Shown: positions 9,001 through 12,000 of the stretch, piece after piece
Layout: the number at the start of each line of letters is the position of its first letter
Position numbering within the stretch: position 1 is the first letter of the stretch
IMG/VR virus record: IMGVR_UViG_648028025_000010
Origin: a virus
Taxonomy: Duplodnaviria > Heunggongvirae > Uroviricota > Caudoviricetes
Strand: one strand, 5' to 3'
DNA: 64,000 bases
Made by a program: the position numbers

Positions 9001-12000
9001 GAACCAGCTCTTGCCATTGAGAAACAGCAGATGGGTCAACGCCAGCAGCTTTCGCTACTTTGGCTTTCGTACCGTAAAAATTAATTACGTCTGATTTAAA
9101 CATCGCACCTCCAATATTGAGTTTTCTCAATGCTAATCACTCAAGGAATCTCAAGTCAAGGGTTATTAAGATATCTAAATATGAACGAGAAAACTTTAGG
9201 TCAACGCATTAGAGAAAGACGTAAGCAGGTAGGCTTAAGTCAAAACGGTTTAAGCAAAGCTGCTGGCGTATCTGGCTCATCAATTTCATTATGGGAAAGT
9301 GACCATACAGCCCCGCGCGGGCAAAATTTGCATCGCCTCGCCGAGGTATTGCAATGTTCACCAACTTGGATACTGTTTGGCGACGAGGACAAAACACCAG
9401 CTCCCCCTGTTTCACTCGATAGTGCCTTAGACTTATCGGAAGATGAGTTAGAGATGCTGCGTTTGTATCGCGCACTTCCTAAATCAGAGCAACAAGCACA
9501 ACTCAGCGAACTCCGCGCCCGCGTTGAGAATTTTAATCGCCTGTTCACCGAGCTATTAGAGGCTCGCAAACGCAACAAGCATCAATAATCATCCCTTCAC
9601 AAAATTTTAAAGCCTTACATTTCAATGTATTGGCTTTATCTTGCGCCAACACTTGAGTTTTCTCATCAAAAAACCTTGACGAAAAATAATGAGAAAACTA
9701 AATTACCTCCATCAAGACACCGCACGGTGTTCTCAGCAAACAGTTCCGCTACCCCGGCGTTAAGGGGAAATGAGGTCAGCATGGATACTATCGATCTTGG
9801 CAACAGCGAATCTCTGGTATGTGGCGTGTTCCCCAACCAGGACGGCACGTTCACCGCGATGACGTATACCAAAAGCAAAACGTTTAAAACCGAAAATGGT
9901 GCCCGTCGCTGGCTGGAAAGAAACTCAGGTGAGTGATATGGATTTCAACACAATCATGGAAAAGGCTTACGAAGAATACTTCGAAGGCCTTGCCGAAGGC
10001 GAAGAAGCTCTCAGCTTCAGTGAGTTTAAACAGGCACTCAGAATAAGAATGTGCTCTCACAATGACGCGGAGCACAAATATGAGAAGCAAAATCAGACCG
10101 CAGAAAATTTTGTTCTGGAACCCGGAGAAACGCTTTTCAAAATTCCCGTTACGTGCCCCATTTGCGGTTTTACATCAGAAGAACTTGACGACTCCTGTAA
10201 CAATCAGGAAACAACCAAGTATGTCGAAGATGATACCGAGTGCGCACGAAGAACGATTATATCCACGAGTCCAAACTCCAGGACCAATAAATCTCACTAT
10301 GAGAGGGTGATTAATCCACTCCCCCAAACCAATAAAAAAGATGCCGGAGGACAAAAAACCCAATGGAACAACGGGATATCTGTCAAAAAAAGACGTTCCA
10401 TTAAAGACAAACAACGCAGCGCCAACAACTGTAAGCGCTTTATACCAGTAATCAATTTTCATGTTCTTAAGCGGATTTATTGGTGGTTGCGACATTGCTT
10501 AATGAATCCTTAAAACTGTGGTGATTTTAAGGATACCACCTCGCCTGACGTGGTTAAAAGCAGGCACACAACACGAAAGCGCACGGCGAAGTTCGTCTCA
10601 CTGTACGGTGTCGTTAAATTTAATTCGACCGTGCGCTTCCGGTTGTGGCAACCCGCAAAATGGCGCGGCGGTAAGTATGGCGGGGTTATTCCTTCCCCGT
10701 TGAGGACACCGGGTTGTCAGGTTGACCATACGCTTAAGTGACAACCCCGCTGCAACGCCCTCTGTTATCAATTTTCTGGTGACGTTTGGCGGTATCAGTT
10801 TTACTCCGTGACTGCTCTGCCGCCCTTTTTAAAGTGAATTTTGTGATGCGGTGAATACGGCTAAGCGCACGCGGAACAGTTAAAACCAAAAACAGTGTTA
10901 TGGGTGGATTCTCTGTATCCGACGTTAATTGTTAACTGGTTAACGTCACCTGGAGGCACCAGGCACTGCATCACAAAATTCATTGTTGAGGACGCGATAA
11001 TGAAAACGTTATTACCAAACGTTAATACGTCTGAAGGTTGTTTTGAAATTGGTGTCACTATCAGTAACCCTGTATTTACTGAAGATGCCATTAACAAGAG
11101 AAAACAAGAACGGGAGCTATTAAATAAAATATGCATTGTTTCAATGCTGGCTCGTTTACGTCTGATGCCAAAAGGATGTGCACAATGAATTCAGCATTTG
11201 CGCTTGTTCTGACAGTTTTTCTTGTTTCCGGAGTGCCAGTTGATATTGCAGTCAGTGTTCACAGGACAATGCAGGAGTGTATGACTGCAGCAACCGAACA
11301 GAAAATTCCCGGTAACTGTTACCCGGTCGATAAAGTTATTCACCAGGATAATATCGAAATCCCGGCAGGTCTTTAAAACAGTTCCGTAATAAATATCCGG
11401 TTTCATTCTTATATGCCAGCAATGGCAGGGATTTGTTCATCCTTAAATCTGTCATGAGGTTAAAACAAAATGAGTAAAGTCTTTATTTGCGCCGCTATTC
11501 CTGACGAACTGGCAACAAGGGAAGAAGGCTCTGTGGCTGTAGCCACAGCCATTGAAGCTGGCGACGAACGCCGTGCTCGAGCAAAATTTCACTGGCAGTT
11601 CCTGGAACATTATCCGGCTGCTCAGGACTGCGCTTATAAATTTATTGTCTGCGAGGATAAACCTGGCATACCCCGCCCTGCCCTCGATTCATGGGATGCT
11701 GAATATATGCAGGAAAACCGCTGGGATGAGGAGTCTGCTTCTTTTGTCCCGGTTGAGACTGAATCCGATCCGATGAACGTCACTTTTGACAAGCTGGCCC
11801 CTGAAGTACAGAACGCTGTCATGGTTAAGTTCGACACATGTGAAAACATCACCGTTGATATGGTTATTAGCGCACAGGAATTGTTGCAGGAAGACATGGC
11901 AACATTCGACGGACATATCGTTGAAGCGTTGATGAAAATGCCAGAAGTTAACGCCATGTATCCGGAGCTTAAGTTGCACGCCATTGGGTGGGTTAAGCAT

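Follow-up and report, generated by a model that had tools for sequence, protein, structure and literature searches.

The closest known counterpart of the cassettes described here is the dicBF operon of the Qin (Kim) cryptic prophage of Escherichia coli K-12, which comprises dicA/dicC, ydfABC, dicF, dicB, ydfD, and ydfE. In K-12, the promoter dicBp is repressed by DicA, and repression is relieved by the antirepressor Rem. K-12 DicB binds the C-domain of MinC and directs MinC to the septal ring, which blocks division, and it also inhibits ManYZ in a MinC-dependent manner, which excludes phages lambda and 434. The small RNA (sRNA) DicF, which represses ftsZ in an Hfq-dependent manner, is processed from the dicBp transcript and occurs in K-12 as a 190-nucleotide (nt) species produced by RNase III and a 53-nt species produced by RNase E (PMC10448788), and lysis by YdfD depends on cell division and has been attributed to inhibition of IspG (PMC8835842). 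Here we compare with this system a stretch of DNA of 64,000 nt from IMG/VR virus record IMGVR_UViG_648028025_000010 (hereafter “the window”), which carries two DicF-DicB-YdfD cassettes, one K-12-like (copy A) and one diverged (copy B). We read the window as part of an E. coli O26 chromosome in which two tandem heteroimmune lambdoid prophages adjoin rspB. On this reading, the switch of allele class after a block shared by the two modules reflects the ordinary mosaicism of lambdoid prophages, with a hotspot for crossovers in the FTEDAIN segment of DicB, and copy B encodes a functional allele of a second DicB class (class II) that would act through MinC like K-12 DicB. We consider this reading, taken as a whole, to be likely.

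Several other systems are comparable. Lambda Kil, Rac KilR, and e14 SfiC/YmfM are likewise small proteins of lambdoid early leftward operons that block the FtsZ ring on induction. Lambda Kil reportedly depends on ZipA, as does the DicB/MinC complex. However, these proteins are unrelated in sequence to DicB, which works via MinC and not directly on FtsZ and which, unlike Kil, KilR, and SfiC, is paired with an sRNA, DicF, that targets ftsZ mRNA. Several dicF/dicB copies are known from different lambdoid prophages of pathogenic E. coli (PMC5069750, PMC7873438, PMC6832061), and a review (PMC7873438) gives four DicF copies for enterohaemorrhagic E. coli (EHEC). The cassette of copy B is 100% identical over 751 nt to dicBF loci of EHEC O157:H7 (CP-933M/O/P; the Sp prophages of strain Sakai), from which it shows no substantive difference, and the window represents the O26 instance of these loci. 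Multiple dicBF copies and class II DicB are already known, and the protein is listed in RefSeq as DicB and well represented in Pfam and PHROG models. The papers on the O157:H7 dicBF loci that we examined contain no discussion of two DicB classes and no comparison of their activity.

Over 24 kb, the window shows 100% identity with the E. coli O26 strains RM8426 and 12689. In RM8426, RefSeq annotates two tandem lambdoid prophages that end at rspB, which is where Qin lies in K-12. Prophage A (approximately 1–19.6 kb of the window) is Qin-like and degraded, and prophage B (approximately 19.7 kb to past the window end) is largely intact and carries nleC. In each of them, the leftward early operon has the order repressor/cro, dicBp, ydfA, DicF, dicB, ydfD, and exonuclease gene. 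Copy A, in prophage A, matches the operon of Qin in gene order and in its position beside a YdfE-type exonuclease gene, xis, and int; its DicF and DicB are identical to those of K-12 MG1655 and its YdfD is near-identical (two residues different). It departs from Qin in having other DNA in place of ydfC, a heteroimmune repressor with 56% identity to DicA, and xis and int genes interrupted by insertion sequence (IS) elements. Copy B, in prophage B, shares with Qin the K-12-type DicA, DicC, and dicBp and the same cassette layout, but it differs in DicF (A39G), DicB (63% identical), YdfD (45% identical), and the exonuclease, which is RecE-type rather than YdfE-type.

A whole-window Rfam scan placed DicF at two + strand sites, 10774-10825 with 76.7 bits and 62344-62395 with 75.0 bits, both matches spanning the full model (RF00039, positions 1-52; gathering score 48 bits). 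A six-frame motif scan yielded dicB and a ydfD-like gene exactly twice each, with no third copy in the window. These counts confirm the statement of an earlier reading of the sequence alone (hereafter the first-pass annotation) that there are two cassettes, the second diverged; the coordinates it gave, 10773-11376, are those of the K-12-like copy A, and the diverged copy lies at 62343-62943. All genes of both cassettes are on the + strand. In copy A, the 53-nt DicF (10773-10825) lies at the end of a predicted precursor of approximately 190 nt (10636..10825) and is followed by dicB (11000..11188; class I allele, 62 amino acids [aa]) and by ydfD (11185..11376; 63 aa, lysis protein YdfD/DUF1482). 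In copy B, the predicted precursor (62206..62395) ends in a 53-nt DicF with A39G (62343-62395) and is followed by dicB (62570..62758; class II allele, 62 aa, METLLPNVNTSEGCFDIGVLLSNREFTEDAINMRKYEPYLLNDNSILSRIALLELGIFGERQ) and by a DUF1482/YdfD-like gene (62755..62943; 62 aa). The DicB-like peptide quoted in the first-pass annotation is encoded exactly at 62570-62758. In both copies, 174 nt separate DicF from the 62-codon dicB, the Shine-Dalgarno sequence is identical, and an ATGA overlap couples the dicB stop to the ydfD start (CAATGAAT in copy A and CAATGACT in copy B).

Both DicB proteins match the Pfam model PF05358 over residues 1-62 of 62 (136.8 bits for copy A and 125.5 bits for copy B; cut-off 27) as well as NCBIfam NF049927 (132.8 and 114.2 bits; cut-off 100), and both YdfD proteins match PF07358 (88.7 and 56.3 bits; cut-off 25). 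In addition, copy B DicB matches phrog_1251 (138.9 bits) and the adjoining YdfD-like protein matches phrog_1092 (116.5 bits). The RefSeq entries of copy A DicB (WP_000854559.1) and copy B DicB (WP_000449175.1) both carry the name “cell division inhibition protein DicB,” assigned for copy B by the Prokaryotic Genome Annotation Pipeline (PGAP); PGAP labels the YdfD of copy A “lysis protein YdfD” and that of copy B only “DUF1482 family protein.” PADLOC gave no defence-system match for DicB, YdfD, or the adjoining open reading frames (ORFs) of unknown function.

The two copies part within dicB. Upstream of dicB, 357 of 364 nt are identical; within dicB, identity is 52/54 over nt 1-54, 35/45 over nt 55-99, and 44/90 over nt 100-189. 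A block of 98% identity extends from approximately 140 nt upstream of DicF to codon 18 of dicB, beyond which identity is approximately 50% and continues at that level through ydfD; the start of the block lies approximately at the 5′ start of the 190-nt RNase III-generated DicF precursor of K-12. Gene conversion within the genome was considered as the source of this block and rejected as unnecessary, because copy B is equally similar to K-12 across it. The two DicB proteins, which are of equal length and align without gaps, share 39 of 62 residues, with 26 of 33 identities in residues 1-33 and 13 (45%) in the last 29. In YdfD, 28 of 62 residues are identical across the whole length of the protein; the hydrophobic N-terminus, both cysteines, the TVFL(V/I)(S/T)G segment, and the C-terminal PAG motif are retained. 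The first-pass annotation had both proteins of copy B keeping their N-terminal halves but having different C-termini. “Different” overstates the change, because the C-termini are diverged homologues and not replacements.

Protein searches and alignment separate the C-terminal halves of the DicB family into two classes. Class I, which includes K-12 DicB and copy A, ends in ...RKQERELLNKICIVSMLARLRLMPKGCAQ, and class II, which includes copy B and relatives in Salmonella and Citrobacter, ends in ...RKYEPYLLNDNSILSRIALLELGIFGERQ. Sixteen of the last 29 residues distinguish the classes, and within each class the sequence is conserved from genus to genus. Across the family, residues 1-15 do not vary save for K2/E2, of which E2 is the commoner, and the FTEDAIN segment is also conserved. 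The family contains natural recombinants that pair either middle segment with a C-terminal half of either class (P0005 and P0011 versus P0068 and P0071), which suggests that the FTEDAIN stretch acts as a crossover point. The diverged class II DNA was taken from contigs encoding the protein relatives.

Class II DNA is widespread. Among 5426 complete E. coli genomes, 843 carry the class II-specific part of the cassette (62650-62943), which occurs at 1371 places with a maximum of four per genome, and 3964 carry the equivalent class I DNA. The 751-nt copy B cassette recurs with 100% identity in many O157:H7, O26, and O121 genomes, a protein identical to copy B DicB is encoded by the E. albertii type strain and by at least 55 IMG/VR prophage contigs, and deposited phage and prophage records carry either class. 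The diverged copy B is a common and already annotated allele class, and the finding is real but ordinary. The first-pass annotation was right that copy B diverges, which it does from the middle of dicB onward, but it missed that the divergent form is very common and annotated.

Substitution patterns and transcription both bear on whether copy B is functional. Between copy B dicB and the class II dicB of Salmonella, the ratio of nonsynonymous to synonymous substitution rates (dN/dS) is 0.15 overall and 0.21 in the C-terminal half (dS 0.52); against Citrobacter, dS is saturated and dN is 0.2-0.28. These ratios indicate that purifying selection acts on exactly the part of DicB that differs from K-12. 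The “dicB” primers of a reverse-transcription quantitative PCR (RT-qPCR) study of O157:H7 (PMC6915034) have exact matches in copy B, the reverse primer being class II-specific, and the transcript assayed in O157:H7 is that of class II dicB. This transcript was detectable, decreased with DicA overexpression or dicC deletion, and increased with DicC overexpression (PMC6915034). The first-pass annotation would have been refuted by a diverged DicB that is non-functional or not expressed; purifying selection, the intact promoter/operator, and the O157:H7 transcript all speak against such a DicB.

In K-12 DicB, the N-terminus (approximately the first 14 residues) is essential, including L5 and the presence of residue 2, although A, G, or R is tolerated at position 2. 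K-12 DicB can lose its last eight residues, whereas C-terminal deletions of 12-20 residues weaken the protein (PMC4967827). Copy B is identical to K-12 in residues 1-15 save for K2E and retains L5. The first-pass annotation suggested that the divergent DicB may have altered MinC or receptor interactions. The conserved N-terminal residues, the tolerance of position 2, and the dispensable last eight residues speak against an altered MinC interaction, and the effect of the longer deletions, the neutral C-terminal half, and the conserved proline at position 38 would allow for a difference. Because copy B keeps the whole N-terminal determinant, we infer the same MinC-based mechanism for it. On relief of the DicA-type repressor, the transcript of the prophage B operon would give three products. 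DicF from this transcript would block ftsZ translation. DicB would most likely bind the MinC C-domain via its invariant N-terminal segment and bring MinC to the septum, where MinC would block Z-rings and, if it behaves as in K-12, also ManYZ-dependent entry of phage DNA. The YdfD-like protein would be produced by translational coupling and may, like its K-12 counterpart, be a lysis protein targeting IspG.

Several points weigh against this reading. The literature searched gave no experiment on filamentation, MinC binding, ZipA dependence, or ManYZ inhibition by a class II protein, and no comparison of activity between the two classes. Only 45% of the last 29 residues are shared with K-12 DicB, and this part of the protein is not irrelevant, since deleting 12-20 residues weakens K-12 DicB. 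From class I to class II, the net charge shifts from +3 to -5 for the whole protein and from +5 to 0 for the C-terminal half, and the conserved Pro38 of class II breaks the long helix predicted for class I: AlphaFold2 monomer models have helices at 24-36, 38-42, and 46-55 in class II and a single helix at 24-52 in class I, although both models are of low confidence (predicted local distance difference test scores of 63.8 and 68.6) and only the helix pattern was used. A sequence search of the PDB with the variant DicB gave no match. The RT-qPCR evidence comes from O157:H7 and not from this O26 strain, and phenotypes in O157:H7 are indirect because O157 carries several dicB copies. Finally, prophage B may not be fully viable, as its tail gene U is frameshifted.

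The alternatives to a functional, homologous class II allele fare differently. In copy B, the C-terminal halves of both DicB and YdfD might be unrelated to those of copy A, having arisen by illegitimate recombination or frameshift, as a literal reading of “different C-termini” would have it. In favour of this are a DNA identity of just approximately 49% in this part and the lack of any BLASTP alignment between the two isolated 29-residue C-terminal peptides. In an in-register shuffle test, the 13 identities, against 2.3 expected, were reached in none of 200000 shuffles. Seven residues (R34, K35, E37, L40, I46, S48, and A51) are invariant in both classes of the family alignment, both proteins match the Pfam DicB model from end to end, and the likeness of the YdfD proteins includes both cysteines and the PAG motif. 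Since the DicB C-termini are of equal length, align without gaps, and share far more residues than expected, they are diverged homologues and not replacements; an unrelated origin is refuted by the alignment statistics and is extremely improbable. A reading of copy B dicB and ydfD as decaying, non-functional, or silent prophage remnants could draw on the pseudogenes annotated in prophage B and on the distance of copy B from the characterised K-12 protein. However, both genes are intact full-length ORFs that keep the Shine-Dalgarno sequence and the ATGA coupling, their DNA is shared without change by many O157, O26, and O121 genomes, dN/dS against Salmonella is low, as is dN against Citrobacter where dS is saturated, the promoter, operator, and repressor are intact, and the transcript is detected and regulated in O157:H7. 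Copy B as a remnant is strongly disfavoured by this evidence, and we regard it as very improbable.

A third alternative accepts that class II DicB is functional and binds MinC N-terminally, but holds that the changed charge of its C-terminal half steers the complex towards another partner, either instead of or besides the known one. The two classes would then be functionally distinct, the neutral C-terminal half and the proline kink changing the septal or inner-membrane partner of DicB-MinC; class II might differ in ZipA dependence or inhibit an inner-membrane phage receptor other than ManYZ, and two alleles in one genome would be non-redundant, with different spectra of division block or superinfection exclusion. 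Conservation of each class across genera despite the 16 differences between them, the contrast in C-terminal charge together with Pro38, and the weakening of K-12 DicB by C-terminal deletions are in line with such a redirection, as are the coexistence of both classes in the window and the up to four class II copies per genome. On the other hand, MinC, ZipA, and ManYZ are core E. coli proteins common to the hosts of both alleles, and the hydrophobic positions L40, L41, I46, A51, L53, and L55 are kept in the C-terminal half, which is consistent with the same fold and role. Divergence of helix surfaces without a change of function is common in small phage proteins, and poly-lysogeny simply explains the coexistence of the classes. 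A functional distinction between the classes is unlikely in our view, and a class II DicB that acts through MinC in the manner of the K-12 protein remains the preferred reading.

DicF was said in the first-pass annotation to be conserved apart from one substitution, and this is correct: A39G is the only change in copy B relative to copy A and K-12. Thermodynamic predictions, on which these results are based, indicate that A39G replaces the inner-stem pair U27-A39 by a U-G wobble within the same fold (-15.4 vs. -15.9 kcal/mol) and leaves the DicF-ftsZ duplex unchanged (-38.5 kcal/mol), nt 39 being placed in an unpaired internal loop. Both copies are predicted to have a terminal stem-loop with a U-tail and the 5′ and loop sequences that pair with xylR and ftsZ/pykA. 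Of 73 sampled loci having a DicF, 15 carry the A39G allele, which is a common polymorphism and probably neutral. Conservation between the copies is 98% over the approximately 140 nt upstream of DicF, a stretch that in K-12 belongs to the 190-nt precursor, and the precursor 5′ ends given above are putative positions. A shorter element, TTTTCTGGTGATTCGGCGGAAACGGATATCCGCCCTTTTT, occupies the DicF slot of some related loci and keeps the DicF 5′ end and terminator without the ftsZ-pairing loop (L004 of E. albertii, approximately 2270-2320; also L013, L024, L025, L030, L037, L049, L067, L070, and L071), and in others (L005, L073, L078, and L087) the slot has a different loop or 5′ end. The variants of L004 and L005 score below the Rfam DicF threshold, and the Rfam model found no DicF in the Salmonella and Citrobacter dicB loci examined.

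The control regions of the two prophages are of different types. Prophage B has a cro-like dicC (60105..60335, - strand) whose product is identical to K-12 DicC at 73 of 76 residues (96%), a dicA-type repressor gene (60419..60826, + strand; 125 of 135 residues identical to K-12 DicA, 93%), and a dicBp-like promoter/operator (60886..60916, + strand; TTGACC...TGTTAGTCATGGCTAATCTT) upstream of a ydfA-like gene (60993-61145); alignment with the dicA-ydfA spacer of K-12 shows this region to be almost identical to K-12 dicBp. Prophage A encodes a DicA-like heteroimmune repressor (9181..9588, + strand; 75 of 135 residues identical to K-12 DicA) and a divergent cro-like gene (8876-9103, - strand), with a promoter-like site (9676-9704) upstream of ydfA (9781-9936), and its operator differs from the K-12 type. 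The two cassettes are under separate repressors, since the repressor and operator of prophage B are of K-12 type and those of prophage A are heteroimmune. The K-12-type DicB sits in prophage A and the K-12-type DicA/DicC/dicBp operator in prophage B (8876-9704 vs. 60105-60916).

Between the ydfB remnant and DicF of prophage A, in the place of ydfC in K-12, there is a 106-aa ORF with several hydrophobic segments (10175-10495, - strand) that has no Pfam, PHROG, or PADLOC match. Its DNA is carried by 794 of 5426 E. coli genomes; in the eight records listed, the match overlaps no annotated feature (0/8). The equivalent slot of prophage B holds a 73-aa ORF (61796-62017, - strand; phrog_4274) and a 212-aa ORF (61157-61795, + strand; phrog_2151), both of unknown function and neither with a Pfam or PADLOC match. 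Variable cargo seems to be housed between ydfA/B and DicF.

Downstream of the cassettes, the exonuclease genes are non-homologous, YdfE/Rv2179c-like in prophage A and Exonuclease VIII (Exonuc_VIII) in prophage B. Directly upstream of each exonuclease gene lies an intergenic island of approximately 50 bp on the + strand (11410..11462 in copy A; 62980..63030 in copy B, where the RecE-type gene starts at 63036), which holds the stem-loop TGCCAGCAATGGCA followed by GGGATTTGTT, with a T-rich tail in copy A, and which includes a terminator-like site at 11414-11427 in copy A and the corresponding site at 62983-62996 in copy B. The island is conserved between the prophages despite the approximately 50% identity of ydfD and the unrelated exonucleases. 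Possible interpretations are a terminator, a processing site, and a recombination joint.

Prophage A also contains cspF, ydfT/U, rem, hokD, and relBE. An IS66-family element (ISCro1; 14137-16752) splits its xis and IS600 (18068-19224) splits its int, and prophage A is therefore locked in place. Prophage B has near-complete sets of tail, head, lysis, Q, replication, and immunity genes, followed by the cassette, the exonuclease gene, xis, and int, and the tail gene U frameshift and its other pseudogenes are taken from the RefSeq annotation. The type III effector gene nleC (20345-21331, - strand) is located at the prophage junction, beside the tail-fibre genes of prophage B. Further Rfam matches in prophage B include STnc100, three tRNAs (Ile, Arg, and Arg), a sok antitoxin RNA beside hokD, the C4 antisense RNA, and isrK, with matches at 49873-50042, 51415-51661, 55691-55865, and 56574-56758 (- strand).

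The window shows lambdoid prophages shuffling the dicBF module, with a crossover inside the 62-codon dicB, and K-12 DicB is just one of two common allele classes. The significance beyond bookkeeping is small. Nevertheless, the mechanistic work on DicB (MinC, ZipA, and ManYZ) has all been done on the K-12 allele, while many Shiga toxin-producing E. coli (STEC) carry class II and O157:H7 at least transcribes it, and a functional comparison of class I with class II is a modest lead. If the two classes were distinct, poly-lysogenic STEC with both would have a division block and phage-exclusion spectrum that are broader or tuned differently.

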